NCBI GenBank assembly: GCA_050251015.1
Contig: JBFWNO010000001.1
Coordinates: 15,860-79,859 of the forward strand
DNA length: 64,000 nt
DNA from: Planctomycetota bacterium
Lineage (GTDB): Bacteria > Planctomycetota > JBFWNO01
Reading direction: 5' to 3'
The position numbers and the translations under genes are program-made. The notes beneath the pieces were generated by a model. It had not been told where the DNA came from and searched no databases. It saw nothing but the letters and a program-made list of their open reading frames with translations. Shown in pieces: positions 17,001 through 51,627 of the stretch. Each line of letters begins with the position of its first letter. The first letter of the stretch is position 1.

Positions 17001-19273
17001 CTCACGGCCCCGGACACGCCAATGGACTTCACAATGCGACCCGAGAGGTCGGAACTGACGTTCCCGTACTTGTCCACGGCGTCGACAGTGACTTGAAAGG
17101 AAACCTGCTCGGTCTGGTCGGCTGTGGTGCCGGACACATAACCGATTTTGGTTCCGAGATAGGTGGTTTGCCCGGGGGTGATCTTTGTGCCTTGGACCCT
17201 CACCACAAGGCGGCTGGCCGCCGAGGTCACCGTGTGGCTCATGGAAAGGGAGCTGGCGCCACCGCCCGTAAAGGTGATGGTGTGAGTGCCGGCCACATAC
17301 TGCCTCAGGCGCTTGAAATAGAAGTAGCCGCCTTGGGCCGTGGCTGTGACGTTGGAACTCCAGTTGGCACTGCTGGCCGTGAGCACCGTGGAATTGTCAT
17401 TGAGATACGTGTTGCCGGCCGTGTCTGTGAGGCGCAAGGTGATATCAAGACCATGATCGGCGCTGACCGGCGAGGAGGGGAACTTCACCACATCCAAGGT
17501 CACGCCATTTGGGTTGGTGTTGGGGTTGAACGGAACGGTGCGGGAAGGGGCACTCGATGAGGATCGTTCGCCGTTGGTCCTGATACCCACCACCTTGAAC
17601 ACACCGTAGGGTTCAAGGAACGTGAAACCCGTGTAGGTGTGGTAATTGCCATACGAAGCCGTGAAGGGAAAGGTGAAGGTGGGCTGGGTGCTCTCGCCAA
17701 AGTAACGGAACTCGTTGTACTTGGCATAGGTCATATAGGGAATCCCATAAAGGATGGGTTCCTTCTTGTAGATGTAATATTTGTCGGGCACCACGCTGGT
17801 GCCCGGGGCCACATCCCACTCGATCCTCACCGTACCATTTTCGTTATAGACCACGACGTTTTCCGGGGATGGCAAGAGCACATCATTACGGGCCTTATTG
17901 CTCGTGGCCCTTGAAGTCGCAGGACCCCTTAAGATCTCCGGCGAGGGAAGCGAGCGTTTGCCGTTGCTATCCACCGCCACAATCCTGAACGCCCCGTAAT
18001 GGGACCCGAACCAGTTGTTGGTGTGGAAGGCTCCAAAGAACGAATAGTGCTGGTAAGCCGCAAACTCTGAATAGGCCGTGAAGCCACCCAAAGATGAATA
18101 GTTGTTGTAAACGGTGTAAGCGAGGTCGGAGGTTAAACCCGCCAAGCGCCAACCCGAATACATCGTCCAGGCTTCCTGCAACCCAGGGCTGTAGTAGTTG
18201 CCGTAGGCGAGGTAGGAAAGGCCGTCAAAATACCTGTCGTAAGGGGCGTTGTTCATGTAGACGACATAGTTCAGGTAATCGTTGTAATAAGCGCTGTTGG
18301 AGTGCGAGTATTGGTTGAATGAAGAATAGTTCATGTAGGCGGAATATTTTTCCCAGATTTCATAGGTGACCCCGGACTTGAGGGCCCCCTTCCATTCAAT
18401 GCCGAACTTTCCTGGCCAATTACCCTCATACCTCACGCGAGGAGTCCCGGGAGCTTCTGGGGCCTCTGTCGAATTAACGAAATAAAAGTCACCGAGATCC
18501 ACCTTGCGCACCACTCCGCCGATGGTGGCCGAGGCTTCCAGGGCCAACTTTTCACGCTTGTTGTAGGTGAGGTTCATCGTGGAAATCCCCGCGACCACCA
18601 CGGCCGACCCTCCCGTCAGCGATCCTGTGCTGGAAAGCGGACTGATCGAAACATCAGTGCTGTTGTCGGCCGTGTTGATGTTGCCGTACACGTCGGTCAC
18701 GGCCACCTTCAGCTGAAAGCTGCCGTCCTTCGACACGACGCCCCCCCTGCGACTGAGGCTGGTGAGGGTGGTGAAGGGGCCGGGAGCCAGCATGGTGTCG
18801 GCCGTCACGGTATCGATGGAGTCGACCAGCATGCCGTTGAAGGAGCGTGTCTGGATCTTGTACGTACCAGTGGGTCCCTTGCGCGGGGAGTTCTTCACCC
18901 CGGACAGCACCAGGGTCACGCTCGTGTTTGCAACCGTGTCCGAACCGTTACCTGTGCGCTTGATTTGGAGGATGTTGGCCATGACATCCGCCGTGACCAC
19001 AAAACTTCCGTCGATGTTGTGGGCCGCCGAGAAGGTCGCCTGGGAGATATCGTAGTCGTATGGAAAATGCACCGTGGCGTCCGCTGTGGCTGACAGGACA
19101 GAGGCGGTGTCAAAGCTCACGCAGACCTTGGTGGTGGCTCCCACATTCTTGCTGACAGGCTCAACGTTGGCGTTGCTCAGGTTACCGGCAGAAAGTGACG
19201 CTTGAAAGAGAACGAAGGCCAGTAGGAAAATCCAAGCCATCCCAAATCGTTGATGCATCAAGACCCCCGTCAT
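14072..19273 (-). CDS. Giant (1733 aa) secreted cell-surface protein with PKD repeats, FN3/Ig-like segments, a Tyr/Ser/Asn-rich low-complexity region, and a C-terminal hydrophobic helix + RRR tail (sorting-signal-like)
   Basis: N-terminal signal peptide (MAWIFLLAFVLFQASLSA). Repeated WDFN/GDG PKD-type motifs (VWDFNTADS, WQWDFNADGIFD, WQWDFNGDGLFD). Very high S/T/N/Y content. C-terminus LLATSLLLILAAWVVGRRRSA. Start codon overlaps the upstream gene's stop (TGATG). Confidence 0.8.
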   Translation of the reverse strand: MTGVLMHQRFGMAWIFLLAFVLFQASLSAGNLSNANVEPVSKNVGATTKVCVSFDTASVLSATADATVHFPYDYDISQATFSAAHNIDGSFVVTADVMANILQIKRTGNGSDTVANTSVTLVLSGVKNSPRKGPTGTYKIQTRSFNGMLVDSIDTVTADTMLAPGPFTTLTSLSRRGGVVSKDGSFQLKVAVTDVYGNINTADNSTDVSISPLSSTGSLTGGSAVVVAGISTMNLTYNKREKLALEASATIGGVVRKVDLGDFYFVNSTEAPEAPGTPRVRYEGNWPGKFGIEWKGALKSGVTYEIWEKYSAYMNYSSFNQYSHSNSAYYNDYLNYVVYMNNAPYDRYFDGLSYLAYGNYYSPGLQEAWTMYSGWRLAGLTSDLAYTVYNNYSSLGGFTAYSEFAAYQHYSFFGAFHTNNWFGSHYGAFRIVAVDSNGKRSLPSPEILRGPATSRATSNKARNDVLLPSPENVVVYNENGTVRIEWDVAPGTSVVPDKYYIYKKEPILYGIPYMTYAKYNEFRYFGESTQPTFTFPFTASYGNYHTYTGFTFLEPYGVFKVVGIRTNGERSSSSAPSRTVPFNPNTNPNGVTLDVVKFPSSPVSADHGLDITLRLTDTAGNTYLNDNSTVLTASSANWSSNVTATAQGGYFYFKRLRQYVAGTHTITFTGGGASSLSMSHTVTSAASRLVVRVQGTKITPGQTTYLGTKIGYVSGTTADQTEQVSFQVTVDAVDKYGNVSSDLSGRIVKSIGVSGAVSFPASMGARNLTLTNGTATTTLTCVTSAAPFAKRFIVTADLTGFPGFVSHPSVYFFVHKGIRVKRVEFSDLDSNGSTDSVVVSFDSPINDSTITTGPPTRGFFISHDNAGAIKPSGWHSYGTANDTRIELLFQNPQDSGTVTKSFTYYQKFGKVKGLNGAYVINTLTADNTLIDRRNNQASVVNSSTYGLASRGGTLHAVTLDFSGTIPNEYLTASRWIVVAANGVVLNVTGTGRDMANNKLTVSLDGTLGNTGTPHVGFESSDPNLVINGLVAMGGGTTASPLINITWQSLTDPSIQKYAVFRSTSLNGTYSLLTTTTASVTQDSTIASGTTYYYYLRGLMTGSRVTKPSQKVSASVLGAVPTVSCSATPTSGTAPLTVLFSGTASDTDGQIVQYVWDFNTADSLPSNYTSGTSASTSYTYQESGSYTARLTVMDNSGNSASATVVITVGSPSSGPTANATYNTLGGPAPLAVTFADTSTAGSSAIALWQWDFNADGIFDTSSTVTGNASTIYRLPNRTYNGVKLKVTDLNGRTSTKTFTVTVGAGTNAPQVTLDGAAATNSSGTLISSSGTLPYCVTFSATTYDKAPGKIIRWQWDFNGDGLFDRITTFDRGLRSVTHCYTVPGTYAPLVRVRDNSGLEAEDSFVITIASPTNALPQILEPVTGDRVGGDRLLLRAVATPGSIVSTLLFEYSTDASSWTQTGSTHTGVKPEYRGELSLSTFANGSPIYIRARCTDTQSGSGTSTVVKVFKVAANQAQVYETLSGTKATKEVSLDATLAQEVTTTTGAGMEIPLGAISQDAINLGGLRCRIEDIGQGSTYAISTGLPSDTTNLGYTVGFSLKLSNGSQVQLPSLPVILRMPYPDVNNDGLVDGTSIREENLVVYYYDTGLSSWRPVVGVAVDTAANVVEITTAHLTDFGMFATVVSGAIGGSAGGPGAAASGLCLISEVTAPWSLLATSLLLILAAWVVGRRRSA

Positions 19274-23956: not shown

Positions 23957-23990
23957 GGGGGTATTGTAGACATGCGTTAGAATCCCTGTC

Positions 23991-24542
23991 ATGAGTTTTG
24001 GCCTCAACCTTCTCCTCCCCGGCCGCGCCCAATGGCTGGGCCTCCGCCGCATCGAGGGAACCCTGTATGCCCTCACGGCCTTGGGTGCAGTGGCGGCCTT
24101 TACACTGGCCGAAACCTTGTTGGAAAACCCCCACGCGCCCATGGAGGGCGGGCTCCTGGGGATGAAACCCACCTCCCTCTTTCTGGCCAGAGCCAGCGCC
24201 GTACTGATGTTTGTTCTTGCCTCTCTGACGAGCCTGCTTGACCGGCATTTTGAGTCGCCCTACGCACCCGCCGACGGACCCAAAACCCAGGAGTTTTATG
24301 AGGTCTTGCTGACGCTTTCCATGAAGCCCCAGGGCACCGAGGCCCTTGAGATGGCCACCCGGGGCCTGGGGATCCATGGCCGCGACCCTTTCCTGAGGTT
24401 TCAACGCGCCCGACTGCTCCTGAGATCGGGAAAAAAAATGGAGGCACAGGCCGAGCTGGAGACATGCCGGCATCTGGACCTTGGGCACGAACTTGAATGG
24501 GAGTGCCAACAACTTGGCCAAGAACTTCAGGAGACGGCATGA
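23991..24542 (+). CDS. Hypothetical membrane protein with TPR-like C-terminus
   Basis: 183-aa ORF with two predicted TM helices. Its end overlaps the purB start (ATGA). Confidence 0.5.
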   Translation: MSFGLNLLLPGRAQWLGLRRIEGTLYALTALGAVAAFTLAETLLENPHAPMEGGLLGMKPTSLFLARASAVLMFVLASLTSLLDRHFESPYAPADGPKTQEFYEVLLTLSMKPQGTEALEMATRGLGIHGRDPFLRFQRARLLLRSGKKMEAQAELETCRHLDLGHELEWECQQLGQELQETA

Positions 24543-25978
24543 GCGACACCGACCACTACGACAACCCCCTGGTGACCCGTTACGCCTCGCGGGAGATGAG
24601 CCGCATTTTCTCCCCCGGCTTCAAGTTCAGCACCTGGAGGCACCTGTGGATCGAACTGGCGGACGTGCAGAGGGAACTCGGCCTTCGCATCACCAAAAAG
24701 CAGATCCAGGCCCTCAAGAAACACCAGCACGCCATCGACTTCAAGCTGGCCGAAAAATTGGAGAAGAAGTTTCGCCATGACGTGATGGCCCATATTCACA
24801 CCTACGCCGCCAAGGTTCCGGAAGCCAAGGGCATCCTTCACTTGGGCGCCACCAGCGCCTTTGTCGGCGACAACACCGACCTCATCCAGATGCGCGAGGG
24901 ACTTCTGCTCCTGCGGCGCCGGCTCGTGGGTGTGATCGACAAGCTGGGCCGCTTCGCCACGAAGACCCGCTCCATCCCCACCCTCGGGTTCACCCACTTC
25001 CAGCCCGCCCAACCCACCACCGTGGGCAAGCGCGCCTGCCTATGGATCCAGGAACTCCTGATGGACCTGGAGGACCTGAACCACCAGCTCAAGCACCTCA
25101 AGTGCCGCGGGGCCAAGGGCACCACGGGAACCCAGGCCAGCTTCCTCGAACTCTTCGAGGGCAACCACCGCAAATGCGAGGAGTTGGACCGCCGCCTGGC
25201 CAAACGCCTGGGGTTCCCCGCCAGCTACGGTGTGACGGGCCAGACCGTCAGCCGCAAGGTGGATGCCCGCATCCTTTCCGTGCTCAGCGGGATCGGGCAG
25301 AGCGCGCACCGCATCGCCAATGATCTCAGGCTCCTGGCCCATCTTAGGGAAGTGGAGGAGCCCTTTGAAAAGGACCAGATCGGCTCTTCCGCCATGGCCT
25401 ACAAACGCAATCCCATGCGCGCCGAAAGGGCCACCTCGCTGGGCCGCTTCCTCATCAACAGCGTCCAGAATGCAGCCTTCACCGCGGCCACGCAGTGGTT
25501 CGAACGCACGCTGGACGACAGCGCCAACAAGAGGCTCAGCGTCCCCGAGGCCTTTCTTGCGGCCGATGCCGTCCTGCTGATCCTCGACAACGTGTCGGGC
25601 GGATTGATCGTGAACCGCGCGGTGATCGAGAAACACCTCCAGGCCGAACTTCCGTTCATGGCCACGGAAAACATCCTGATGGCCGCCGTCAAGCATGGCG
25701 GCGACAGGCAGGAACTCCATGAGGTGATCCGCAGCCACAGCCATGCCTCGGCACGCCGAACTAAGGAAACAGGCGAACCCATCGATTTGATCAGCCGCTT
25801 GAAGGCGGACCCCGCCTTCTCCCGTCTCCCCCTCAATTGGAAGGGCCTGCTTGATGGGCGCCGCTACGTGGGTCGGGCCCCCGAGCAGACCACGACATTT
25901 CTCCGGACCGAGGTGGCCCCGGCCCTTCGTCCCTTCCGCAGAGAAATCGGCGCGGGAACCGCCGACCTTAGGGTGTGA
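24539..25978 (+). CDS. purB: Adenylosuccinate lyase
   Basis: MSDTDHYDNPL ... fumarate-lyase family signature (GSSAMAYKRNP). Start at the 15th codon of the track ORF. Confidence 0.9.
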   Translation: MSDTDHYDNPLVTRYASREMSRIFSPGFKFSTWRHLWIELADVQRELGLRITKKQIQALKKHQHAIDFKLAEKLEKKFRHDVMAHIHTYAAKVPEAKGILHLGATSAFVGDNTDLIQMREGLLLLRRRLVGVIDKLGRFATKTRSIPTLGFTHFQPAQPTTVGKRACLWIQELLMDLEDLNHQLKHLKCRGAKGTTGTQASFLELFEGNHRKCEELDRRLAKRLGFPASYGVTGQTVSRKVDARILSVLSGIGQSAHRIANDLRLLAHLREVEEPFEKDQIGSSAMAYKRNPMRAERATSLGRFLINSVQNAAFTAATQWFERTLDDSANKRLSVPEAFLAADAVLLILDNVSGGLIVNRAVIEKHLQAELPFMATENILMAAVKHGGDRQELHEVIRSHSHASARRTKETGEPIDLISRLKADPAFSRLPLNWKGLLDGRRYVGRAPEQTTTFLRTEVAPALRPFRREIGAGTADLRV

Positions 25979-26889
25979 ATCCCATCGTCCTGGTCAACAC
26001 TCCCCTCGGCCTCCTGGCCATCCTCATGGTGGGACTTTGCATTGGCAGTTTCCTCAACGTCTGCATTGCCCGTTGGCCGGCGAATGAATCTGTGGTGGCG
26101 CCCCGATCCCGTTGCGGCTCCTGCAAGGGTGCCATCGCTTGGTACGACAATATCCCGCTCCTGAGCTGGCTACTGTTGTTCGCCAAATGCCGGCTGTGCC
26201 GGGCCCCCATCAGCGTGCGATATCCCGCCGTGGAAGCCCTCACCGCTCTCGCTCTCGCCGGCATCAGCATCGTCTTGGCTCCCCAACTTGCCCCACTGCC
26301 CTTATGGAAATCGGCCCTGATCCTTGGGGCGGGCTGGCTTCTGACCGCCTCCACCCTCGTGGTCACGGCCGTCGACCTGGAACACATGATCATTCCCGAT
26401 GAGATCTCCCTGAATCTGATGGGTCTGGGGCCCGCCCTGGCCATTGTGGTACCGGAGATCATGACGGAACCCGTCCTGGGTGCAGCTCTTCTCCATGGCA
26501 ATCCCCCCCTCGCACTGGCCCGAGAATCCTCCTGGACCATGGCCTTGGGTTCTTCCTTGGCCGGGATCGCCCTGGGAGGCGGGTTGCTCTGGGGACTGGG
26601 CCTCATCGGGGAGAGAGTCTTCAGGAAAGAAGCCATGGGATTCGGGGATGTGAAGCTCCTGGCAACCCTGGGAGGTTTTCTGGGGGTTGAAGGAGTTCTG
26701 ATCACCCTCGTTTTGGCCTCCCTCATGGGGTCCTTTGTGGGGATCCTCACCTTCCTAGTCAAGCGCACCCGGCATATCCCCTTCGGCCCCCACCTGGCTG
26801 TGGGAGCCCTCCTGACCTTCCTCATCAAGGGCCCCCTGATCCACGCCGCCCTGACGTATCTGGGTCGGGGCCGGACGCCGGGGCTATAA
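25975..26889 (+). CDS. pilD: Prepilin leader peptidase / N-methyltransferase (A24 family)
   Basis: N-terminal Cys-rich CxxC...CxxC region, multiple TM helices, and peptidase A24 catalytic Asp regions. GTG start overlaps the purB stop. Confidence 0.8.
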   Translation: MNPIVLVNTPLGLLAILMVGLCIGSFLNVCIARWPANESVVAPRSRCGSCKGAIAWYDNIPLLSWLLLFAKCRLCRAPISVRYPAVEALTALALAGISIVLAPQLAPLPLWKSALILGAGWLLTASTLVVTAVDLEHMIIPDEISLNLMGLGPALAIVVPEIMTEPVLGAALLHGNPPLALARESSWTMALGSSLAGIALGGGLLWGLGLIGERVFRKEAMGFGDVKLLATLGGFLGVEGVLITLVLASLMGSFVGILTFLVKRTRHIPFGPHLAVGALLTFLIKGPLIHAALTYLGRGRTPGL

Positions 26890-26925
26890 TGATTTTTAAG
26901 CTTATATAGAGAAGAAAAGCAGGAG
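26884..26925 (+). promoter_or_regulatory. AT-rich candidate promoter/RBS region (TATAAT and TTATATAG boxes; AGGAGA Shine-Dalgarno) upstream of the OmpA-like gene
   Basis: A local AT-rich island in a GC-rich background immediately upstream of the ATG at 26934. Confidence 0.3.
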
Positions 26926-26933
26926 ACCCCCCC

Positions 26934-27587
26934 ATGGCAATCAAGACCCCCCTCATGATGATCCTGGCCCTGGCCCTTTCAGCCTGCCAGACCCCCTGGT
27001 ACCAGCTTCAGCTGGAGAATGCCGACCTGAACAAGAGGATCCAGGACACCGAGGAGGAAAACGAGCGCCTCCGCCTTCAGCTTGAGGGGGCCCAGAAGGA
27101 CCTCAACCTTACTGCCAGCGACCTGGAAAAACTCAAGGCTGAAAAGGCCGCCCGTGAAGCCAAGCTCAACAGCCTCCGTGATTCCATGAAGGGCACCGAC
27201 ATCGAGGTCACCGAACGCAACGGCCAAATGTGCCTGATTCTTCCGAACAACGTCTTCTTCGCCTCCGGGAAGCATGAGCTCACCAGCAAGGGCAAGGCCT
27301 CGCTCTCCACGGTTGCCGGCGTCCTGAACGGACAGTACGGTGAATTCAAGGTGATCGTCGAGGGTCACACCGACTCCGATCCGATCAAGAAGAGCCACTA
27401 TGCCGACAACTACCAGCTCTCCGCCGAGAGGGCCCGCAGCGTTCTCTTGAACCTGATGAACGACGGCAAGGTGAAGTCCGAGCGCCTCAGCGGCGCCTTC
27501 TATGGTCCCCACCGCCCCGCGGCCTCCAACGCTTCGGAATCAGGCAAGAGCAAGAACCGCCGCGTCGAACTGGTCCTCTGCAAATAA
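26934..27587 (+). CDS. OmpA-family lipoprotein with N-terminal coiled coil
   Basis: Lipobox LALALSAC. Coiled-coil segment. C-terminal OmpA-like peptidoglycan-binding domain (NRRVEL). Confidence 0.75.
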   Translation: MAIKTPLMMILALALSACQTPWYQLQLENADLNKRIQDTEEENERLRLQLEGAQKDLNLTASDLEKLKAEKAAREAKLNSLRDSMKGTDIEVTERNGQMCLILPNNVFFASGKHELTSKGKASLSTVAGVLNGQYGEFKVIVEGHTDSDPIKKSHYADNYQLSAERARSVLLNLMNDGKVKSERLSGAFYGPHRPAASNASESGKSKNRRVELVLCK

Positions 27588-27596
27588 GGTTGTGAA

Positions 27597-28673
27597 GTGA
27601 CCGCCTCCGTCAGCATCGAGGAACTGCTCCAGCTGATGGTGGAAAAAGGCGGCAGCGACCTGCACGTCACAGCCGGATCCCCTCCCAGGATCCGTGTCGA
27701 TGGCGAGCTTCTGCCGACGGAACACCCCAGCCTGCATGCCGAGGAGACGAAGAACATCGTCTACTCCATCCTCAACGGCGAGCAGGTGGCCCGTTTCGAA
27801 AAGGAACTGGAGCTCGACATGAGTTTCGGGATCCAGGGCCTGGGCCGCTTCCGCACCAACGTCTTCGTCCAGCGCGGCGCTGTGGGCGCCGTGCTCCGGA
27901 TCATCCCCACCGACATCAAGGGCATCGACAAACTCGGCCTGCCCCGCGATGTCTGCGTGGAACTCCTGAGCATGCCCAAGGGCCTGATCCTGGTGACAGG
28001 GGCCACGGGATCTGGAAAGAGCACCACGCTGGCAGCCATGATCGATTACATCAACGACAGCCGCAACGAGCACATCATCACCATCGAGGACCCCATCGAG
28101 TTCGTGCACCGCAACAAGAAGTGCCTGTTCAATCAGCGCGAGGTCGGCACGGACACCCTGGCCTTCCATAAGGCCCTCCGTAGCGTCCTCCGTCAGGACC
28201 CCGATGTGGTGCTGATCGGTGAAATGCGGGACACGGAGACCATCGAGGCCGCCCTCACCCTGGCGGAAACGGGTCACCTGACCTTCGGGACTCTCCACAC
28301 CTCCGACTGCACCCAGACCATCAACCGGGTCGTCGACGTGTTCCCCGCCCACCAACAGCAGCAGATCCGCACCCAGCTGAGCTTCACCCTCCAAGGGGTG
28401 TTCTGCCAACAGCTCCTGCCCACATCCAGCGGCAAGGGGCGCGCCCTCTGCGCCGAGGTCATGGTGTGCAACAGCGCCATCCGTGCCCTGGTGCGCGACA
28501 ACAAGATCCACCAGATCTACTCCCATATCCAAACGGGTGGCAAGCACGGCATGATGACAATGAATGCCTCCCTTGCCAAGTTGGTGAAGGAACGCAAGAT
28601 CACGCGTGAAACAGCCATGGAGCGCACCACCGACATCGAGGAACTCAATCGCCTGATGCTCAAGGAGATGTGA
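27597..28673 (+). CDS. pilT: Type IV pilus retraction ATPase
   Basis: Walker A GATGSGKST. PilT-specific regions including the C-terminal AIRALVRDNK motif. GTG start. Confidence 0.9.
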   Translation: MTASVSIEELLQLMVEKGGSDLHVTAGSPPRIRVDGELLPTEHPSLHAEETKNIVYSILNGEQVARFEKELELDMSFGIQGLGRFRTNVFVQRGAVGAVLRIIPTDIKGIDKLGLPRDVCVELLSMPKGLILVTGATGSGKSTTLAAMIDYINDSRNEHIITIEDPIEFVHRNKKCLFNQREVGTDTLAFHKALRSVLRQDPDVVLIGEMRDTETIEAALTLAETGHLTFGTLHTSDCTQTINRVVDVFPAHQQQQIRTQLSFTLQGVFCQQLLPTSSGKGRALCAEVMVCNSAIRALVRDNKIHQIYSHIQTGGKHGMMTMNASLAKLVKERKITRETAMERTTDIEELNRLMLKEM

Positions 28674-29125
28674 TGCCCCGCCTTCTGCTCGCTTGGGCCC
28701 TGGCCCTTCCCCTTGTGGCATCCCTGGTTTCCTGCGAAGAGAAGGATGATGCCACCAAACGCCGCGAGCTCCTCGCAAAGGAACAAAGGCGCTTGGAATC
28801 GAAGGTGACGCCTGTCATACAGGCTTACCTCGACAGGCTCATCGCCAAGGATGTGGAGGGCGTCTACGCGATGCTCTCTTCCACACTGCGCAAGGAGCGC
28901 ACTCTCGAGGATATGAAAAAACACTGGGCCCGCGAAGGCGATGAATACGCCCGCGTCGCGGCCACCTCCCAGATCCAGCGGGTCAGCCCCCAGGGCATCT
29001 ATGCCGTGGCCTTCCTCCGGAGCGTGAAGGGCGACGAGTATGTGAGCCTGATGGAGGAGGATGGCCAGTGGAAGATCCACATGGCCTCTGAGAGCTTCCT
29101 CAAACTCATTTCTATCCTGAAATGA
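28670..29125 (+). CDS. Hypothetical lipoprotein
   Basis: Signal peptide + lipobox (LVASLVSC). 151 aa. Embedded between pilT and pilC with 4-nt overlaps. Confidence 0.6.
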   Translation: MMPRLLLAWALALPLVASLVSCEEKDDATKRRELLAKEQRRLESKVTPVIQAYLDRLIAKDVEGVYAMLSSTLRKERTLEDMKKHWAREGDEYARVAATSQIQRVSPQGIYAVAFLRSVKGDEYVSLMEEDGQWKIHMASESFLKLISILK

Positions 29126-30330
29126 CCACCTTCGTCTATACCGGCAAACGCGGCGGCAAACCCGTGTCGGGCCAGCTGGAGGCCAACAGCAAGGACGAGG
29201 CCACCAAGAAGCTGGGCGGCCAGGGCATTGTCAACCTTACCATTCAGGTCCGGACCGATAAAACCAAAGCCGCCAAACCCAAGAAGCCCCCCAACGCCAG
29301 GGTCAAACCCGAGGACTTGGCGGTGTTCACCCGGCAGATGTGCACGATGATCGGAGCGGGCATCCCATTGCTCGAGGGCCTAGAGATCATGAGCGAACAG
29401 GCCGAGGACCCCGGTTTTTCCCACGTGCTCAGGACCGTCGTCGAGAGCGTGCGCACGGGCAACGACCTCTCCGAATCGCTGGCAGCCCACCCCAAGGTCT
29501 TCGAGAAGATCTATGTGAACATGGTGAAGGCCGGCGAGGCCTCCGGCCAGATCGACACCATTCTCGACCGTCTGGCGGGCTACATGGAGGAGTCGGCCAA
29601 ACTCAAGGGCGAGATCAAGAGTGCCATGACCTACCCGGTGATCTCGCTGGTCATGGTGCTGGGCATCGCCGTCTTCCTGATGGCGGTGGTGGTTCCCCAG
29701 TTCGAGGAGATCTTCACTGCCCTGGGTGCGCCGCTGCCCGCCCCCACACAGATCGTGTTGGCCATTTCCAGGAGCATGACTAGCAATTTCGCTCTTTGGG
29801 CCATTGGTGGTGTTGGCCTCTTCTTCGGGGTCAAGTTCGGCAAAAAGACGAAGAAGGGCCAGAGGATGTGGGATTCCCTGGCTCTCAAGGCGCCCATCAT
29901 CGGACCCATTGCCACCAAGGTCGCCATCTCCCGCTTCTCGCGCACCTTCTCCACCCTCCTGTCCTCCGGCGTGCCCATCCTGCAGGCTCTGGAGATCGTG
30001 GCCGCCACCTCCGGGAATGTGCTCCTCGAGGAAGCCATCCTGGCCGCCCGCGACAACGTCAGGGAGGGCAACGAACTCTCGGGGCCCCTCTCCCAGTGCG
30101 GCGTCTTCCCCCTCATGGTCACGCGCATGATCAGCATCGGCGAAAAGTCGGGGGCACTCGAACAGCTCCTGGGCAAGGTTTCCGAGTTCTATGATTCGCA
30201 GGTCGAGCAGGCCATCAAGAGCCTGACCTCCCTGATTGAGCCCATCATGATTGGCGCCATGGGCATCATTGTTGGCGGCATCGTGCTGGCGATCTTCCTG
30301 CCCATCTTCGACGCTCCCAGCCACATGTAG
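29122..30330 (+). CDS. pilC: Type IV pilus inner-membrane platform protein (GspF/PilC family)
   Basis: 402 aa. Two T2SSF-like repeats and three TM segments. Confidence 0.85.
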   Translation: MTTFVYTGKRGGKPVSGQLEANSKDEATKKLGGQGIVNLTIQVRTDKTKAAKPKKPPNARVKPEDLAVFTRQMCTMIGAGIPLLEGLEIMSEQAEDPGFSHVLRTVVESVRTGNDLSESLAAHPKVFEKIYVNMVKAGEASGQIDTILDRLAGYMEESAKLKGEIKSAMTYPVISLVMVLGIAVFLMAVVVPQFEEIFTALGAPLPAPTQIVLAISRSMTSNFALWAIGGVGLFFGVKFGKKTKKGQRMWDSLALKAPIIGPIATKVAISRFSRTFSTLLSSGVPILQALEIVAATSGNVLLEEAILAARDNVREGNELSGPLSQCGVFPLMVTRMISIGEKSGALEQLLGKVSEFYDSQVEQAIKSLTSLIEPIMIGAMGIIVGGIVLAIFLPIFDAPSHM

Positions 30331-30333
30331 GGC

Positions 30334-31944
30334 ATGACGCCCCTGCATGGCGAGACCCTGAGGCTCCGTGGACGCTGGGTGCACGGCCTCAGGCTCTTCT
30401 TCCTCCTCATCTTCCTTGGCACCGTCACCTTCCATGCCTGGGAAGGTTTCAAGACCTTCGACGAGGCCCTCAAGGTTTTTTTCTGGCTCAGCGGCGCCGC
30501 CGGGGTTCTGACCCTTGTCTCCCTGATCCTGCATTCGCACATCCGCAATGTGCGACGCTTCTTAGTGTGGCAGGCCTCGGGCGACCTGATCCTGCTGATC
30601 TGCTTCCTGCATCAGACAGGCGGCCTGGAGAGTGTGGCCCTGCCGATGATCCACGCCCTTGTGGCCACCAGTGCCATCCTCCTTGGAAGGCGCGCGGCAA
30701 GGGCCATGTCCGTGGCGGCCTCCACCGGGATCAGCATCAGCGCCGGACTCTACCTCAGTGCCTCCATGGCCTCGATCCGGTTGCACTATGTGGTGGAGCC
30801 GTGGGCCTGGCCCCACGATCTTTCCCTCGGATCCGTGATCGGCAAAGCGGTACTGTTCTGCGCCCTCCTGGTGATGATGGGGGAGCTCGCGGGGAGACTG
30901 GCCGAAAGCCTGGGCCGGGCGAGGGTGGCCACCCGCGACATCCTGGAAAACCTTGAACAGGGCGTGCTGGTGACCGACAACGAAGGCCGGGTGGCCTTTT
31001 GCAATGGCGCCCTGCGCCGGCTCCTGGACATTGAGGGCGACCCCACACTCCGCCTGGTGACGGAGGCCGGGTTTCCTGAGTCCGTGCAGGAGCGCGTCTT
31101 TTCGGGACGCCATGACTTGAGGGAAATCGACATCCAAACGGACGGATCCGTCATGCCCGTGGAATGCCAGGCCGCACCGCTGGAGGATCCCCGTTACGGG
31201 GGCCGGGGCATGATCCTCACGCTCACCGACATCCGCGAACGCCGGGAAATCGAGCGCATGCGATCCGAAAAACGCCGGGGTGAGACCATCGAGGTGATCG
31301 CCGCCGGACTGGCCCACGAGCTGCGCAATCCCCTGGCCGCCCTGCGCAGCGGCGTCCAGACACTCCGCGAGGAAGCCCGTTCCCTCAACGCCTCCCACCA
31401 GTCGCTCCTGGACCTGGTGCTCAGGGAAAGCGACCGCCTGGACCGCATTGTGGGTGAATTCCTCGACTTCTCCAAGCCGCGCCCCAAGATCTCCACAAGC
31501 TTCCGCCTGGCTGGTGTGGTCGACGAGGTTCTTGAGCTCCTCGACCATGATCCTCGACGGGGATCGGTGGAGCTTCGTCGTGAAGTCCCCGAGACGATCA
31601 GGCTCCTGGCCGACAGGGAGCAGGTGAAGAAGGTGCTGGTGAACTTGGTTCTCAACGCCCTGCAGGCGATGGAATCCTCCGGTCAGGGATCGAAGGTAAC
31701 CGTGGGTGCGCGGACCAAACCGGGACGGGTGGTTCTCCAGATCACCGATGACGGACCGGGGTTCGCCCCCGAAATCCTGGCCTCGCCCTTCACGCCCTTC
31801 GTCACCACGCGGGCCGATGGAACCGGTCTTGGATTGGCCATGGTCGAGCGTGTGGCCCGGGACCATGGCGGTTCCGCCCGCATCCTCAACCGACCCGAAG
31901 GCGGCAGTGTGGTGGAGGTGGAATTCCCCCCGGCACCGGCGTAG
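30334..31944 (+). CDS. pilS: Sensor histidine kinase (PilS-like)
   Basis: N-terminal polytopic membrane domain. HisKA H-box (LAHELRNPLAAL). HATPase N/G boxes. Immediately upstream of a sigma-54-type regulator. Confidence 0.75.
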   Translation: MTPLHGETLRLRGRWVHGLRLFFLLIFLGTVTFHAWEGFKTFDEALKVFFWLSGAAGVLTLVSLILHSHIRNVRRFLVWQASGDLILLICFLHQTGGLESVALPMIHALVATSAILLGRRAARAMSVAASTGISISAGLYLSASMASIRLHYVVEPWAWPHDLSLGSVIGKAVLFCALLVMMGELAGRLAESLGRARVATRDILENLEQGVLVTDNEGRVAFCNGALRRLLDIEGDPTLRLVTEAGFPESVQERVFSGRHDLREIDIQTDGSVMPVECQAAPLEDPRYGGRGMILTLTDIRERREIERMRSEKRRGETIEVIAAGLAHELRNPLAALRSGVQTLREEARSLNASHQSLLDLVLRESDRLDRIVGEFLDFSKPRPKISTSFRLAGVVDEVLELLDHDPRRGSVELRREVPETIRLLADREQVKKVLVNLVLNALQAMESSGQGSKVTVGARTKPGRVVLQITDDGPGFAPEILASPFTPFVTTRADGTGLGLAMVERVARDHGGSARILNRPEGGSVVEVEFPPAPA

Positions 31945-31954
31945 ACTAACCGCC

Positions 31955-33313
31955 ATGCCCGACACCCCACGCCTCCTTGTTGTTGACGACGAAGCCTCCA
32001 TCCGCGAGGCCCTCAGGGCCGTTCTCAAGGGCCACGACCTCGACATGGCGGATTCGGCTGAAAGGGCTCTGGAGATGATCCGGGAAAAGTCCTACGACCT
32101 GGTGATCCAAGACATCAAACTTCCCGGCATGGATGGCCTTGAGCTCCTGGAAAAGATCAAAGAGATTTCTCCCCAGACTGTCATTGTGGTGACCACGGCC
32201 TTCAGCGCCTGGGAAAACGCCACGCGGGCCCTCAGGGCCGGGGCCTACGACTACATCAAGAAGCCCTTCGACAACACCGATATCCGCAACGCCGTGGAAA
32301 GGGCCCTCAAGCTCAAGACCAAGGGAGCCCCTGCCACCTCCACCTGGAGGCTGGTGGGTAAGAGCAAGGTGATTCAGGATGTCTTCACCATGGTGCGCCG
32401 TGTGGCCCACACCGAAAGCACGGTGCTGATCCAGGGGGAAAGCGGTACCGGCAAGGAACTTGTGGCCTCTGCACTGCACACCAACTCCCTCCGCCACACC
32501 GGCCCGTTTGTGAGCGTCAACTGCGGGGCCTTCACGGCCACCTTGCTCGAGAGCGAGCTGTTCGGTCACATGAAAGGCTCTTTCACCGGCGCGGACCGCA
32601 CCAAGAAGGGACTGGTGGAGGTGGCTGATGGGGGCACCTTCTTCCTCGATGAAATCGGGGAGATGCCCCTCGCGCTCCAGGTCAAGCTCCTCCGCCTCCT
32701 GGAGGAAAAGGAGTTCATCCCGGTGGGTGCTAACAAGGCCACCAAGGTGGATGTCCGCTTTGTGTGTGCCACGAACCGCAACCTTCAGGACGAGGTGAAG
32801 AAAGGCAACTTCCGTGAGGATCTGTACTACCGCTTGAATGTGATCCCGATCACCCTCCCCGCTCTGCGCGAGAGGGGTGACGACATCCTCCTCCTGGCAG
32901 ACTTCTTCATCGGACATTACGGCCCGAAGATGCGTTCGAAGATCACGGGGATGACGGACAAGGTGAAGCAAATCTTTCTGAACTATGAGTGGCCCGGGAA
33001 TGTCCGCGAGCTGGAGAACACCATCCAGCGCTCCCTCGCCCTGGCCTCGCCGGACAGCACCAAAATCGATGTCGAGGACCTTGAGGACCGCCTCAAGAAA
33101 ATAAAGGTGAGCGCCGAGCCCCCTGCCCAGGGTTTCGACATTCCCGACGCCGGTATCGACCTCCACGCCCATCTTGATGAAATAGAAAAAATGTACATTC
33201 TCAAAGCCCTCGAAAAATCCGCCGGCGACAAGAATACGGCCGCCCGCCTCCTGGGCGTACAGGTCGCCTCCCTGAACTACCGGATCAAGAAATTGGGGCT
33301 GGGGGGCCGCTGA
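31955..33313 (+). CDS. pilR: Sigma-54-dependent response regulator (PilR-like NtrC family)
   Basis: REC domain (LLVVDDE ... D), AAA+ sigma-54 interaction domain (GESGTGKE; GAFTGA-type loop GSFTGA), and C-terminal Fis-type HTH. Start at the internal Met MPDTPRL (ATG 31955). Confidence 0.85.
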   Translation: MPDTPRLLVVDDEASIREALRAVLKGHDLDMADSAERALEMIREKSYDLVIQDIKLPGMDGLELLEKIKEISPQTVIVVTTAFSAWENATRALRAGAYDYIKKPFDNTDIRNAVERALKLKTKGAPATSTWRLVGKSKVIQDVFTMVRRVAHTESTVLIQGESGTGKELVASALHTNSLRHTGPFVSVNCGAFTATLLESELFGHMKGSFTGADRTKKGLVEVADGGTFFLDEIGEMPLALQVKLLRLLEEKEFIPVGANKATKVDVRFVCATNRNLQDEVKKGNFREDLYYRLNVIPITLPALRERGDDILLLADFFIGHYGPKMRSKITGMTDKVKQIFLNYEWPGNVRELENTIQRSLALASPDSTKIDVEDLEDRLKKIKVSAEPPAQGFDIPDAGIDLHAHLDEIEKMYILKALEKSAGDKNTAARLLGVQVASLNYRIKKLGLGGR

Positions 33314-34155
33314 TGCGGTCGCCACGATCCGAACGTTACTGCCAGAGCATCGTCATCCGCAGGGCGGGAAATTTCCAGGCCGCCCTTAGACTCTTGCCTG
33401 AAAGCAAACGAACCTCCCTTTTCGCCCTGTATTCTTTCGCCCGTCTGGCTGATGACATCGTTGATGGTAGCCATATGACCATGAGCCTAAGGGACCTTTC
33501 TGGACGCCTGGAAGACTGCTCGAAGGGTCCCCAACCCGATGGGGACGATCCCTGGGGCGCCCTGGCCCTTACGCTCAGGCACCACAGGGCCATCACCCCC
33601 CTCCTGCACGAGCTAATTGAAGGTATGCGTCGCGATGAGGGGCCCACGGGGTATGACACATGGACCGATACCGAGGAATACTGCTACCTGGCGGCGGGCA
33701 CCGTGGGCTTGGCCAGCCTGGAGGTCTTTGGCTACACCAGCCCCAACGCCCGGGAACACGCCCGCAACCTGGGCATCGCCCTCCAGCTAACGAACATCCT
33801 GCGCGACCTTCGAGAGGACCATCAGCGTGGCCGGCAGTATCTTCCCCAGGAGGATTTCAATGATTTCGGGATCACCCCCGAGGACCTTGTGAAGGTGAAG
33901 AATCCTTCCCAGGTTTCGGCATTCATGCGCTTCCAGGCCGACAGGGCCCTCACCTACTATGAAAAAGCCAAGCCACTCTACCGTCTGGTGAGGAAAGACT
34001 CCCGCTTCTGCCCCCGGGCTCTGGGACTCGTCTACCGCGAATATCTCGAACTATTAAGAGCTGATCCCCTCAGCAGCCTGAAGGGAACCCTCAAAATTGG
34101 ACGTTGGCGCAAGGCCTCTCTGGTTCTCCAAGCCCGCTTTGGCCGCCATGGTTAA
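33313..34155 (+). CDS. Squalene/phytoene synthase family protein (HpnD/CrtB-like)
   Basis: Asp-rich motif ARLADDIVD and a second motif region (RDLREDHQRGRQYLP) typical of trans-isoprenyl diphosphate synthases head-to-head. TGATG overlap with pilR. Confidence 0.7.
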   Translation: MRSPRSERYCQSIVIRRAGNFQAALRLLPESKRTSLFALYSFARLADDIVDGSHMTMSLRDLSGRLEDCSKGPQPDGDDPWGALALTLRHHRAITPLLHELIEGMRRDEGPTGYDTWTDTEEYCYLAAGTVGLASLEVFGYTSPNAREHARNLGIALQLTNILRDLREDHQRGRQYLPQEDFNDFGITPEDLVKVKNPSQVSAFMRFQADRALTYYEKAKPLYRLVRKDSRFCPRALGLVYREYLELLRADPLSSLKGTLKIGRWRKASLVLQARFGRHG

Positions 34156-34164
34156 AATGAATGA

Positions 34165-34359
34165 ATGAGCTCCATCACGGATATCGGTTCCCTGAACACC
34201 CAGCAGTTTTCAAGGATCAGCTCCCAGATGGCCCAAGGCCCAAAGGTTCTCTCTGAGGTAGCCAGTGATGTGGGTCGTGTGGGTGGTGCGGCTACGGCCA
34301 ACAAGGCCCCTGGCTATAACCCCCAAGGCATTGGGCTCCAACTGGACCTTCTCGTTTGA
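34165..34359 (+). CDS. Small hypothetical protein (64 aa), paralog 1 of a tandem pair
   Basis: Protein-level similarity to the adjacent 65-aa ORF with synonymous DNA divergence. A TAAAAT box ends 7 nt upstream of the ATG. Confidence 0.5.
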   Translation: MSSITDIGSLNTQQFSRISSQMAQGPKVLSEVASDVGRVGGAATANKAPGYNPQGIGLQLDLLV

Positions 34360-34455
34360 GAGGAAAATCCCCCAAGAGACGCCGAAAATAGGCAGAATGA
34401 CGATGGTCTCTCCTTCATTTCCTGCAACGTCCACAGGCAAGGGTAAAATGGGGAC

Positions 34456-34653
34456 ATGAATTCCTTCTCCGACGTAGGCTCCCTCAACGCCCAGGAGTTT
34501 TCCTCCATGTCGGCCAGAATGACCCAAGGGCAGAGGGTGATGGCTGTCGTATCCGCCGCCATGGGGCATGTGCCAGGGCCTTCCGCCGCCAATTCGGCAC
34601 CAAGCTACGATCCCTCCGGGTCCGTGGGTCATCACCTCAATCTCTGGGCCTGA
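34456..34653 (+). CDS. Small hypothetical protein (65 aa), paralog 2 of a tandem pair
   Basis: As above. Its TAAAAT box also ends 7 nt upstream of the ATG. Confidence 0.5.
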   Translation: MNSFSDVGSLNAQEFSSMSARMTQGQRVMAVVSAAMGHVPGPSAANSAPSYDPSGSVGHHLNLWA

Positions 34654-36057
34654 ATGTCCCTTGAGTTCTTCAACACCCTGACCCGCGCGAGGGAACCTTT
34701 CGCACCGCTTGAAGTCGGCAAGGTCTCGATCTACTCTTGCGGTCCCACCGTCTACCATGAGGTGCACCTTGGGAACCTGAGATCCTTTCTTTTTGCTGAC
34801 CTCTTGAGGCGCTCGCTGGAGTTCCTTGGCTTTTCGGTGCGGCATGTGATGAACATCACCGACGTGGGCCACCTCGAGAGCGACGCCGACGAGGGCGATG
34901 ACAAGATGCTCAAGGGGGCCCAGCGGGAGAAGAAGACCGTCTGGGAGGTGGCCCGTCACTACGAGGAACTCTTCCTCAACGACATCACGCTCCTGGGACT
35001 CAAAAGACCCCATGTGCTCTGCCGGGCCACCGAACATATCCAGGCCATGCAGGACATGGTGAAGACTCTCGAAAGCAAGGGTTTCACCTACACGGTGGAC
35101 GGGAATGTCTATTTCGACATCTCCAAGTTTCCCGACTACGCCAAGCTCGGCAAGCTCGACCTCGACCGCAACCAGGCGGGGGCCCGCATCGAGGCCGACA
35201 GCCGCAAGCGGCATCCCGCCGACTTTGCCCTGTGGTTCACCACCAGCTCCACCAAGTTCCCCAACCAGGCCATGCAATGGGATTCCCCCTGGGGCCGCGG
35301 CTTTCCGGGTTGGCACATCGAGTGCTCGGCCATGGCCACGCAGTATCTTGGCGAGCGCTTCGACATCCACACGGGCGGCACCGACCTCATCCCCGTGCAC
35401 CATTCGAACGAGATTGCCCAGAGCGAATGCGCCCTTGGGCACCGCTGGGTGAGCACCTGGCTCCATGGCGAGTTCCTGGTCAACGGCGAGGGTGCCAAGA
35501 TGAGCAAGTCAACCGGCGACTTTCTTTCGCTCAAGACCTTCCTCGCAAAGGGCTTCAAGCCCGAGCACTACCGCTTTTTCTGCCTGGGGGCCCACTACCG
35601 TTCACCCCTGAACTTCACCTGGGAAGCTGCCACGGCGGCGCGAAGCGCCTATGAGAACTTGACCCAGCGGCTGCTGAGTTGGAAGGGTGTCCCGGGCAAG
35701 GTGGATGCCGCTGCCGTGGAGACGCGCACCGAAGCCTTCAATCGGGCCCTCGAAGATGACCTGAACATGCCGGCGGCCCTGGCCCTGGCATGGGATGTGG
35801 CCAAGGATTCTTCCATCAAGGAACCCACCAAGCTGGCCCTGCTCCTGGATTTCGACCGCGTCCTCGGTCTAGGGCTCGCCTCATGCGCCCCTCCCGCCCT
35901 CGATGAAAAGTCCCAGGCCCTGATGAAGGAACGCGAGGCCGCGAGGGCCCGCAAGGATTTCAAGGAAAGTGACCGCCTTCGGGCTGAACTTCTGGCACAC
36001 GGTCTCGTAGTGCGTGATACGCCTCAAGGTCCGGTGTGGCACGGGAAATTTGAATGA
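34654..36057 (+). CDS. cysS: Cysteine--tRNA ligase
   Basis: HIGH-type motif (HLGN), KMSKS motif, and Zn-binding Cys residues. 467 aa. Confidence 0.9.
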   Translation: MSLEFFNTLTRAREPFAPLEVGKVSIYSCGPTVYHEVHLGNLRSFLFADLLRRSLEFLGFSVRHVMNITDVGHLESDADEGDDKMLKGAQREKKTVWEVARHYEELFLNDITLLGLKRPHVLCRATEHIQAMQDMVKTLESKGFTYTVDGNVYFDISKFPDYAKLGKLDLDRNQAGARIEADSRKRHPADFALWFTTSSTKFPNQAMQWDSPWGRGFPGWHIECSAMATQYLGERFDIHTGGTDLIPVHHSNEIAQSECALGHRWVSTWLHGEFLVNGEGAKMSKSTGDFLSLKTFLAKGFKPEHYRFFCLGAHYRSPLNFTWEAATAARSAYENLTQRLLSWKGVPGKVDAAAVETRTEAFNRALEDDLNMPAALALAWDVAKDSSIKEPTKLALLLDFDRVLGLGLASCAPPALDEKSQALMKEREAARARKDFKESDRLRAELLAHGLVVRDTPQGPVWHGKFE

Positions 36058-36368
36058 CCCTCCTTCTCTGCCTCACCACCGTCCCTGACTCCAAGACAGC
36101 CAAGAAACTGTCGGCCCTTTGGGTGGAGCGCGGCCATGCCGCCTGCGTTTCCACAATCCCGGGCATCCAATCCACCTACCGCTGGAAAAACAAAATCGAA
36201 TCCTCGAAGGAATGCCTCCTCCTGGTGAAAACCACGGCTGCCGGCGCCAAAAAAATCCGCGCGTCCCTCAAGAAGGACCACCCCTACGAATGTCCCGAGT
36301 GGTTGGAATTGAAGACGGCGGGGGTGTTGGAGGCTTATGCAAGGTGGGTTCAAGGGTCTGTTCAGTAA
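36054..36368 (+). CDS. cutA: Divalent-cation tolerance protein CutA
   Basis: 104 aa, CutA1 family pattern. ATGA overlap with cysS. Confidence 0.7.
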   Translation: MTLLLCLTTVPDSKTAKKLSALWVERGHAACVSTIPGIQSTYRWKNKIESSKECLLLVKTTAAGAKKIRASLKKDHPYECPEWLELKTAGVLEAYARWVQGSVQ

Positions 36369-41917: not shown

Positions 41918-41993
41918 GCCGAAGTAGCTCAGCTGGTAGAGCAATGCTTTCGTAAAGCATAGGTCACGGGTTCAAGTCCCGTCTTCGGCTCCA
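41918..41993 (+). tRNA. tRNA-Thr (anticodon CGT), with encoded CCA
   Basis: Cloverleaf folded by hand. 7-bp acceptor stem GCCGAAG/CTTCGGC. D-arm GCTC-AGCTGGTA-GAGC. Anticodon stem ATGCT/AGCAT with loop TTCGTAA. T-arm ACGGG-TTCAAGT-CCCGT. 3' CCA. Confidence 0.85.
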
Positions 41994-42190
41994 ATTTCAC
42001 CGTTGAACGTTCTTGGCTAAACGGCAGGCGGTGAATCGCAGGGTATAATGATGAGATGCTCAGGAACATCCTGGTCTGCTCGGTGATGGCTCTGGTGGCC
42101 ATCGCCACCCCCTGGCGCCTCAAGGCGGGTTGAGGGCCCCAAGCTTGTCCTACCCTGCCGGGTGCAGGGCCCGTCCAAATCAACCCCCTG

Positions 42191-42856
42191 ATGCTCAACC
42201 GGACTTCGGTGACACCGCAGGCCGTTGAATGGTCCAGCAAGGGTGACTACGAGGATTACGAAAAAGACGCCACGACCCTCCAACAGTTGGCCGACAGAGT
42301 GCTCAAGGGGAAAACTCTTTCCAAGCCCGCCCTGATTTTCTTCCACCAGCCAGCGGATCCCTCAGGCAAGGGACTGGATCCCCTTGCCGTGCTGACCTCG
42401 GGAAAGGATCTTTCCCTGGGGATGGCCCTGCACAACGTCTTTGACGTCTACACGGTGGCGGTTCCCAAGACCACCGTCCTGGCCGGCAAGTCGTCTCCCC
42501 TGACCCTGGTCACCGATGCCAAAGGCCAACTGCTGGCCGATACGGGTGGCAAGGGCCCCATCACGGCTTCCAGCCTGTATTCCGCCATGAGCGCCGCCTC
42601 GAAAATTCTGGGCTACGACCTGAAAGCCAAGGTCACCCGCGCCTGCTCCCTGGTGCAGACGATGATTTCCCTTGAGGGCCAGGTGAAGACCCAGCGCGAG
42701 AATCTGGCCAAGATCGCCAACCCCAACCAAAGGGGTGTAACGGAATCCCGGATCGCCGATCTGGAAAAACGTCGCATCGATCTTGAGGCTCAGGAGAAAG
42801 CCATCTGGGCCGACCTCCCCACCATCAAGCCCGAGTCCGCCACCAAGGCGGGCTGA
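42191..42856 (+). CDS. Hypothetical secreted/periplasmic protein (mature portion); upstream in-frame signal-peptide ORF at 42056-42123 is separated from it by a single TGA
   Basis: 221-aa ORF. In the same frame, 135 nt upstream, ATG 42056 encodes MLRNILVCSVMALVAIATPWRLKAG followed by TGA. A TATAAT box ends 7 nt before that ATG. Confidence 0.55.
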   Translation: MLNRTSVTPQAVEWSSKGDYEDYEKDATTLQQLADRVLKGKTLSKPALIFFHQPADPSGKGLDPLAVLTSGKDLSLGMALHNVFDVYTVAVPKTTVLAGKSSPLTLVTDAKGQLLADTGGKGPITASSLYSAMSAASKILGYDLKAKVTRACSLVQTMISLEGQVKTQRENLAKIANPNQRGVTESRIADLEKRRIDLEAQEKAIWADLPTIKPESATKAG

Positions 42857-51584: not shown

Positions 51585-51627
51585 CCCCCCGGACACCCCG
51601 TTTCCCCGACGGGTATAATCGTCACCC

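Follow-up and report, generated by a model that had tools for sequence, protein, structure and literature searches.

Why should two adjacent small open reading frames (ORFs) of an uncultured planctomycete each carry the same hexamer at the same distance in front of the start codon, and what kind of genes are they? The pair, here called ORF1 and ORF2, is located between a squalene/phytoene synthase family gene (SQS_PSY) and the cysteinyl-tRNA synthetase gene cysS on contig JBFWNO010000001.1, of which a stretch of 64,000 nucleotides (nt), hereafter the window, was analyzed. The source is labeled by NCBI as a metagenome-assembled genome (MAG) of a “Planctomycetota bacterium”, and the two ORFs are tagged AB7F75_00210 and AB7F75_00215. 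Our analysis shows that both ORFs are real genes and that the pair is the product of a tandem duplication. As the best explanation for the locus we propose tandem-duplicated genes for a cytoplasmic protein of ~6.6 kDa, each with its own leaderless promoter made of a -10 element only, which together front the cysS operon. To this reading as a whole we assign a probability of about 0.6.

Two paralogous genes under purifying selection

Both ORFs were found on the forward strand at the positions given by an initial annotation of the window (Table 1), which had also judged them by eye to be homologous at ~40% identity. BLASTP aligns the two proteins over their full length with 45% identity and 72% positives (E 9e-21). 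Synonymous sites between the copies are saturated (proportions of synonymous and nonsynonymous differences, pS 0.75 and pN 0.32), and the 64-kb window contains no third paralog.

A search of 5.8 billion proteins returned ORF1 and ORF2 themselves and two others only; an exhaustive HMMER search of 1.84 billion representative proteins returned only two clusters and added one further relative. The comparison covers five loci with seven gene copies, i.e. the window and the metagenome contigs L001, L002, L003 and L084. Gene order is SQS_PSY, two small ORFs and cysS in L001; SQS_PSY, ORF1 and then the contig end in L002; and histidine kinase, response regulator, SQS_PSY, a single small ORF and cysS in L003. 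L084, from a groundwater assembly, was located via its SQS_PSY protein, and the contig stops 14 codons into a small ORF that starts with MNSYDSS. A sigma54-type response regulator is seen upstream in both L003 and L084. The initial annotation had proposed to look in related genomes for conserved small ORFs downstream of pilR, and four contigs indeed carry syntenic orthologs. In L002 (1634-1742) an ORF2 start is not seen in the 109 nt before the contig end, and the layout 3' of ORF1 may differ there.

The distribution of the small proteins is restricted to a narrow clade. For SQS_PSY, identity is 77-85% in the four related contigs and only 45-46% in the next closest homologs; two inspected loci of the latter group (L085 and L086) are without an adjacent response regulator, small ORF or cysS. 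Two scans of the GTDB species representatives, one with small-protein patterns and one with SQS_PSY patterns, gave no match, although the narrow peptide patterns could miss divergent relatives.

Within this clade the ORFs evolve as protein-coding genes. The ratio of nonsynonymous to synonymous substitution rates (dN/dS) is 0.10 for ORF2 between the window and L001 (83% amino acid identity) and 0.13-0.32 for three pairs of ORF1 orthologs (55-72%). These values (0.10-0.32) are comparable to those of the neighboring genes (0.12-0.21), namely 0.12-0.14 for three pairs of SQS_PSY orthologs (77-86% identity) and 0.21 for the first 176 codons of cysS between the window and L001 (77%). The identity of ORF2 to its L001 ortholog exceeds the cysS value, and we regard it as higher than that of the neighboring enzymes. 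Differences accumulate mainly at third codon positions (positions 1/2/3: 11/3/26 for ORF2, window vs. L001; 16/8/36 for ORF1, window vs. L002). Purifying selection on the proteins, as suggested from the two window copies alone, is thus confirmed by the orthologs, and ORF1 and ORF2 are real genes.

Table 1. Coordinates of the small genes, their flanks and hexamer-preceded gene starts in the window.
Feature	Position	Strand	Remarks
SQS_PSY	33313-34155	+	HpnD-like squalene/phytoene synthase family; NCBIfam HpnD 199.9 bits, below the cut-off of 278.6
-10-like hexamer 1, TAAAAT	34153-34158	+	6 nt, then ORF1 ATG (34165)
ORF1	34165-34359	+	64 amino acids, 6.5 kDa, pI 5.9; faster-evolving copy; locus tag in the pair AB7F75_00210/AB7F75_00215
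Spacer between copies	34360-34443	+	84 nt; without terminator, without unusual RNA structure
-10-like hexamer 2, TAAAAT	34444-34449	+	6 nt, then ORF2 ATG (34456)
ORF2	34456-34653	+	65 amino acids, 6.7 kDa; more conserved copy; locus tag in the same pair
TGAATG junction	34651-34656	+	ORF2 stop directly abuts cysS start
cysS (cysteinyl-tRNA synthetase)	34654-36057	+	typical CysRS N-terminus, read from the translation and not from a family search
cutA	36054-36368	+	overlaps cysS by ATGA; NCBIfam CutA 79 bits, below cut-off; last visible cistron
class-III aminotransferase gene start	23956 (site 23968-23954)	-	TANAAT layout
opposite-strand TAGAAT site	23978-23993	+	ATG 6-7 nt downstream
sdhB-like iron-sulfur protein gene start	41886 (site 41898-41886)	-	TANAAT layout
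phosphoribosyltransferase gene start	45069 (site 45082-45069)	-	TANAAT layout
HtrA-like protease gene start	48621 (site 48633-48621)	-	TANAAT layout
purF start	51628 (site 51614-51630)	+	TANAAT layout; product begins MCG
uvrA start	58574 (site 58586-58574)	-	TANAAT layout

One ancestral gene, duplicated with its upstream hexamer

The single copy of L003 is bordered upstream by the SQS_PSY junction (GGTTAAAAT, followed by 6 nt and the ATG) and downstream by the cysS junction TGAATG. Since both junctions are intact around one copy, the ancestral state is one gene, and the tandem pair of the window and L001 is derived, from a duplication that extended over the -10 hexamer and its spacer. The promoter region and first codons of the L003 copy (taaaatgggggaATGAATTCCTTCTCCGAC) are nearly identical to those of ORF2 in the window (taaaatggggacATGAATTCCTTCTCCGAC), and L084 is similar. 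ORF2 is the conservative copy and ORF1 the diverging copy. In this scenario one ancestral gene resided between SQS_PSY and cysS, and the duplication carried the putative promoter along; the upstream copy retained the SQS_PSY stop junction and the downstream copy the TGAATG junction with cysS.

The spacer between the copies folds no better than shuffled sequence (z-score -0.01) and contains no terminator-like site, and Rfam gives no family match for the region. An RNA element or riboswitch at the ORF pair was ruled out, as Rfam returns none and the fold is not stable. Derivation of the spacer from duplicated ends of the flanking genes was unsupported, similarity to the flanks being undetectable. 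Just 3' of the ORF1 stop, a motif AAATCCC-N4-6-GA(G/T)(A/G)(C/G)GC(C/A)GAAAA is common to three loci (window 34360-34395, L001 1546-1580, L002 1634-1668); the rest of the spacer has diverged, and no stable structure is predicted for the motif (AAATCCC..GACGCMGAAAA).

A TAAAAT hexamer in front of each start codon

Each ORF is preceded by TAAAAT, 6 nt and the ATG. The hexamers occupy positions -12 to -7 relative to the A of the ATG, which is the 7th base past the hexamer; this is the spacing that the initial annotation had described as exactly 7 nt upstream of both start codons. This geometry would be expected of a transcript that begins with the start codon. On the forward strand of the window TAAAAT occurs in these two copies only. 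The spacing of 6 nt is kept in six of the seven gene copies (both in the window, both in L001, L003 and L084). The 6-nt sequence itself is not conserved across loci; the region upstream of ORF2, GGGTAAAATG(A/G)GG(G/A)CATGAA, is kept in L001 and nearly identical upstream of the single copy of L003.

Hexamer 1 includes the TAA stop codon (34153-34155) of the upstream SQS_PSY gene. It is invariant in the five loci, in all of which SQS_PSY ends with ...GRHG-TAA-AAT. Of the stop codons in the window TAA is used least (6 of 49 genes), and its retention together with the following AAT in all five loci despite this rarity suggests selection on the hexamer.

Neither ORF shows a Shine-Dalgarno (SD)-like motif at a usable distance; both start with ATG. 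A sigma54 promoter was also considered and rejected, since the window has no more matches than expected by chance, and none near the ORFs. Taken together with the window-wide pattern below, geometry and conservation across loci favor the leaderless-type promoters proposed in the initial annotation, a support that comes from sequence data only. The TAAAAT of each copy would be a -10-only promoter, and transcription would begin at the A of the ATG and produce a leaderless mRNA.

The same layout across the window

When both strands of the window are screened for TANAAT, 11 of 18 hexamers have an ATG 6-8 nt downstream. The chance expectation is 0.69 +/- 0.83, with a maximum of 4 in 300 first-order Markov simulations, and the hexamer-to-ATG spacing is sharply peaked at 6-8 nt. 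The housekeeping genes listed with this layout in Table 1 have secure starts; the N-terminus of PurF, for instance, which begins with MCG, is fixed by its catalytic cysteine. The genes uvrA, purF and the sdhB-like gene, each the first of its operon and preceded by a long intergenic gap, have the hexamer in front; a TATAAT is found 17 nt upstream of tRNA-Thr, where a translation signal is unneeded. In six of the nine best sites a G is located two bases upstream of the hexamer (position -14; GG[GT]TAWAAT), resembling an extended -10 signal. SD-like motifs are rare in the window, and at most same-strand junctions the genes share 4 nt or 1 nt. Judged from these patterns, the leaderless-type layout is a general habit of the genome and not peculiar to the two small ORFs.

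In other bacteria, leaderless genes are recognizable by a TANNNT that precedes the start codon by about 12 nt (PMC3160421). The hexamers described here agree with these TA-led genes of Actinobacteria and Deinococcus-Thermus (Zheng et al. 2011, PMC3160421) in the distance of the first T to the ATG (~12 nt), in lacking an SD motif and a clear -35 element, and in their position at many operon first genes. They differ in belonging to an uncultured Planctomycetota MAG, in being close to the full TAWAAT consensus despite a GC content of 61%, in the G at -14, and in that they are known from sequence alone. Planctomycetes use few SD sequences and have been reported to use leaderless and/or S1-dependent initiation (PMC5397173).

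Two further sites deserve mention. Between 23954 and 23993 a TACAAT on the reverse strand and a TAGAAT on the forward strand are 10 bp apart, and an ATG follows each of them after 6-7 nt. The arrangement suggests two leaderless promoters placed back to back, in which case the aminotransferase start would be 23956 and not the upstream GTG at 24172. The initial annotation had noted the same TATAAT-to-ATG spacing at 42044-42056, and TATAAT (42044) and ATG (42056) are indeed found there. In the stretch 42044-42133 this TATAAT precedes only a hydrophobic ORF of 25 amino acids (MLRNILVCSVMALVAIATPWRLKAG), which sits between tRNA-Thr (41918-41993) and a gene for 221 amino acids without known family (42191-42856). 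The short ORF could encode a tiny membrane peptide, or the TATAAT could be the promoter of the downstream 221-amino-acid gene.

The proteins and a possible relationship to YjfB

Both proteins are near-neutral and without cysteine, signal peptide or membrane segment. AlphaFold2 models based on a five-sequence alignment contain a single helix, comprising residues 12-39 in ORF1 (mean predicted local distance difference test, pLDDT, 52; remainder below 50) and residues 12-37 in ORF2 (mean pLDDT 55), and in both proteins the Gly/Pro/Ala-rich tail is predicted to be disordered. The C-terminus of the family reads Y-N-P-x-G-[IV]-G-x-x-[IL]-[DN]-[IL]-x-[AV], with P53, G55 and G57 invariant; it is in the middle, not at the C-terminus, that the sequences vary most. 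A tryptophan near the C-terminus is present in the ORF2 lineage only and absent from ORF1, its orthologs and the single-copy protein P0005. The predicted architecture comprises a helix at the N-terminus, then a flexible tail, and at the C-terminus a short hydrophobic stretch that is conserved. No family had been recognized in the initial annotation, and scans of the family against Pfam, NCBIfam, PADLOC and PHROGs likewise give no match. A Kelch repeat was considered and rejected: the matches of a PDB profile search were all to designed proteins with six-fold repeats (SAKe6BE), a repeat-summing artefact in which the same weak match (~5 bits per identical repeat, per-stretch E-value above 100) is counted six times, and Pfam Kelch gives no match.

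The one lead to a known family concerns YjfB_motility (PF14070). The proteins might be very divergent members of it with a motility-related accessory role beside the type IV pilus genes, an idea that would be compatible with our best explanation of the locus but that we consider rather doubtful. YjfB proteins usually occur in sigma28/flagellar modules and are uncharacterised (FlgV preprint). The resemblance consists in a similar size (~60 amino acids), the lack of a signal peptide, a helical N-terminal half and the extreme C-terminus, where P-x-G-[IV]-G-x-x-[IL]-[DN]-[IL]-x-[AV] can be placed beside P-x-L-G-x-N-[IV]-D-[IV]-x-[AV] of YjfB; pilD, pilT, pilC and pilSR-like genes are moreover located upstream. 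For a comparison, 72 real YjfB sequences were gathered by a degenerate-pattern scan of metagenomes. (A YjfB consensus matched the PF14070 model at 2.5e-24, and as a query gave no match in the protein database or in plasmids.) Hhalign against the 72 sequences aligns the last 14 columns only (P 0.005, probability 7%), a score reached by none of 200 column-shuffled family alignments in local or global mode, and a hidden Markov model of the family gives real YjfB sequences slightly higher scores than shuffled versions of the same sequences (means 2.0 vs. 0.6 bits). Only 15% of the YjfB sequences, however, exceed the 95th percentile of the shuffles, and the resemblance was spotted by eye before testing, so that the P values are optimistic. 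Five family members give no Pfam match even at E <= 10 (gathering score 27 bits), and six members score at most 5.5 bits with a profile of the 72 YjfB sequences (hmmsearch). The central motif V[LM]K[KM]A[LM]D (VLKKAMD type) is present in 72/72 YjfB sequences and absent from 6/6 family members. Finally, the genomic context is cysS together with histidine kinase, sigma54 response regulator, SQS_PSY and cutA, and not flagellar or sigma28. That the proteins form a cryptic, non-flagellar branch of the YjfB family is a tentative notion which we would not favor; the C-terminal likeness could reflect a distant relationship or a convergent tail motif, and neither way does it supply a function. As to the cellular role, we would guess at a small adaptor or binding protein, which may be very distantly related to the small proteins of the YjfB type.

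Do the hexamers act as promoters?

Several observations weigh against the explanation favored here. The hexamer-to-ATG spacing of ORF1 in L002 is 13 nt, no match to a -35 element was found upstream of the hexamers, and the sequence of hexamer 1 is in part dictated by its role as SQS_PSY stop codon. Transcription of ORF1 by read-through from the operon of histidine kinase, response regulator and SQS_PSY is equally conceivable, because these upstream genes overlap one another. On the protein side, the AlphaFold2 models are of low confidence (pLDDT 52-55) and the family scans are empty.

Several of these points would also fit a scenario in which the hexamers are not promoters at all. The small ORFs would then be internal cistrons of a long mRNA running through histidine kinase, response regulator and SQS_PSY, and the A/T-rich hexamer would be an unstructured translation enhancer of the S1 type. 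The genes for SQS_PSY and the response regulator overlap and a terminator is absent before ORF1, whose TAA-containing hexamer could be mere stop-codon context of SQS_PSY; the deviating spacing in L002, the absent -35 element and the S1-dependent and/or leaderless initiation of Planctomycetes (PMC5397173) are in line with it as well. Yet the motif keeps the T-A...T of the sigma70 -10 box (TANAAT) instead of being just A/T-rich, and the same hexamer fronts a tRNA gene. It also fronts the first genes of operons after long gaps, with a spacing peaked at 6-8 nt. We therefore regard the enhancer scenario as improbable and retain -10-only leaderless promoters as the preferred explanation.

The link to cysS

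The junction TGAATG between small ORF and cysS is identical in the window, L001 and L003, i.e. in all three loci where it is visible; in the latter two contigs, too, cysS follows a small ORF. The cysS ATG has no -10-like or SD-like motif of its own upstream. With neither a terminator nor another start signal in between, ORF1 and ORF2 probably constitute the promoter-proximal part of an operon that continues through cysS to cutA. Translation of cysS would probably depend on ribosomes that finish ORF2, by termination-reinitiation. Such coupling has been described (Huber et al. 2019, PMC6728339), and the present case resembles it in the contiguity of the ORF2 stop and cysS start and in that most same-strand gene pairs overlap by 4 nt or 1 nt. 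It differs in that the junction abuts without any overlap and in that the coupling is deduced from sequence.

The conserved junction and the missing start signal of cysS might also suggest cis-acting upstream or leader ORFs, where the act of translation alone would set cysS expression and the peptides themselves would be functionless. But the peptides are under purifying selection as strong as that on the neighboring enzymes, and ORF1 is conserved though it does not adjoin cysS. Cysteine codons and an attenuator-type structure are absent, and there is no room for the latter. An attenuation-type aminoacyl-tRNA synthetase leader was likewise rejected, with no Cys codons, no terminator-like site, no T-box or other Rfam match and no fold above shuffles. 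A pure leader-peptide role is thus unlikely, and the probability we attach to it is small.

Upstream genes

The initial annotation had placed the ORFs between a pilSR-phytoene-synthase block and cysS. The position holds; for the “phytoene synthase”, an HpnD-like SQS_PSY (with its sub-cut-off score) is the better description. The stretch 24497-33310 contains purB, pilD (prepilin peptidase), an OmpA/MotB-like gene, pilT, a gene for 151 amino acids (28670-29125), pilC, a histidine kinase with multiple membrane spans and an NtrC-type regulator; neither pilB nor a pilin gene was identified in it. In other bacteria a pilin gene often follows such a regulator; here none was found after it. SQS_PSY is translationally coupled to the sigma54 response regulator of the PilS/PilR-like system, its start sharing one base with the stop of the regulator gene (30334-34155). 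This unusual partnership is kept in every related contig that reaches that far (L003 1-3444; L084 69-1501).

A membrane histidine kinase, a response regulator, an isoprenoid-synthase-fold enzyme and small tandem ORFs, kept in four or five loci, recall the comQXPA gene set. By analogy, the small ORFs would be precursors of modified signaling peptides like ComX, with SQS_PSY as modifier and the two-component system as receptor; ORF2 even has a tryptophan near its C-terminus. As in comQXPA loci, the small ORFs adjoin an isoprenoid-fold enzyme and a two-component system. However, this tryptophan is absent from ORF1, the ORF1 orthologs and the single-copy P0005, and there is no cysteine. Variability is highest in mid-protein and the C-terminal P53/G55/G57 are invariant, in place of the hypervariable C-terminus of ComX. 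SQS_PSY belongs to a head-to-head synthase family with its HpnD-like similarity intact and is not a polyprenyl synthase, the gene order is different, and an exporter or protease gene was not found nearby. We hold it highly improbable that the ORFs are ComX analogs, and no less so that kinase, sigma54 regulator, SQS_PSY and tandem ORFs form a ComQXPA-analogous peptide-signaling module whose kinase would sense the modified product. Chance frames in a non-coding spacer, which the shortness of the ORFs, the missing family match and the poor structure prediction might suggest, and any non-coding element are excluded because of the paralogy (E 9e-21), the frames kept in four other contigs, dN/dS of 0.10-0.32, the three-base periodicity of substitutions and the negative Rfam result, so that this last alternative is effectively refuted.

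Elsewhere in the window, an ORF of 1733 amino acids on the reverse strand (14072-19273) coincides with a lower-GC stretch; its GC content by codon position is 0.50/0.51/0.74, compared to ~0.64/0.45/0.77 in other genes.

Conclusions

The two small genes represent a new, conserved orphan family of small proteins. The locus points to leaderless, -10-only promoters as the default operon start in a lineage of Planctomycetota, a phylum that has received little study, and to a gene that was duplicated together with its promoter. Both the transcription and the translation of the essential cysS gene appear to rely on the small gene in front of it. As a mechanism of expression this is of an already known kind and poses no challenge to current understanding. 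Our results may be of use for the annotation of start codons and small genes in Planctomycetota, and they provide a candidate for small-protein studies.

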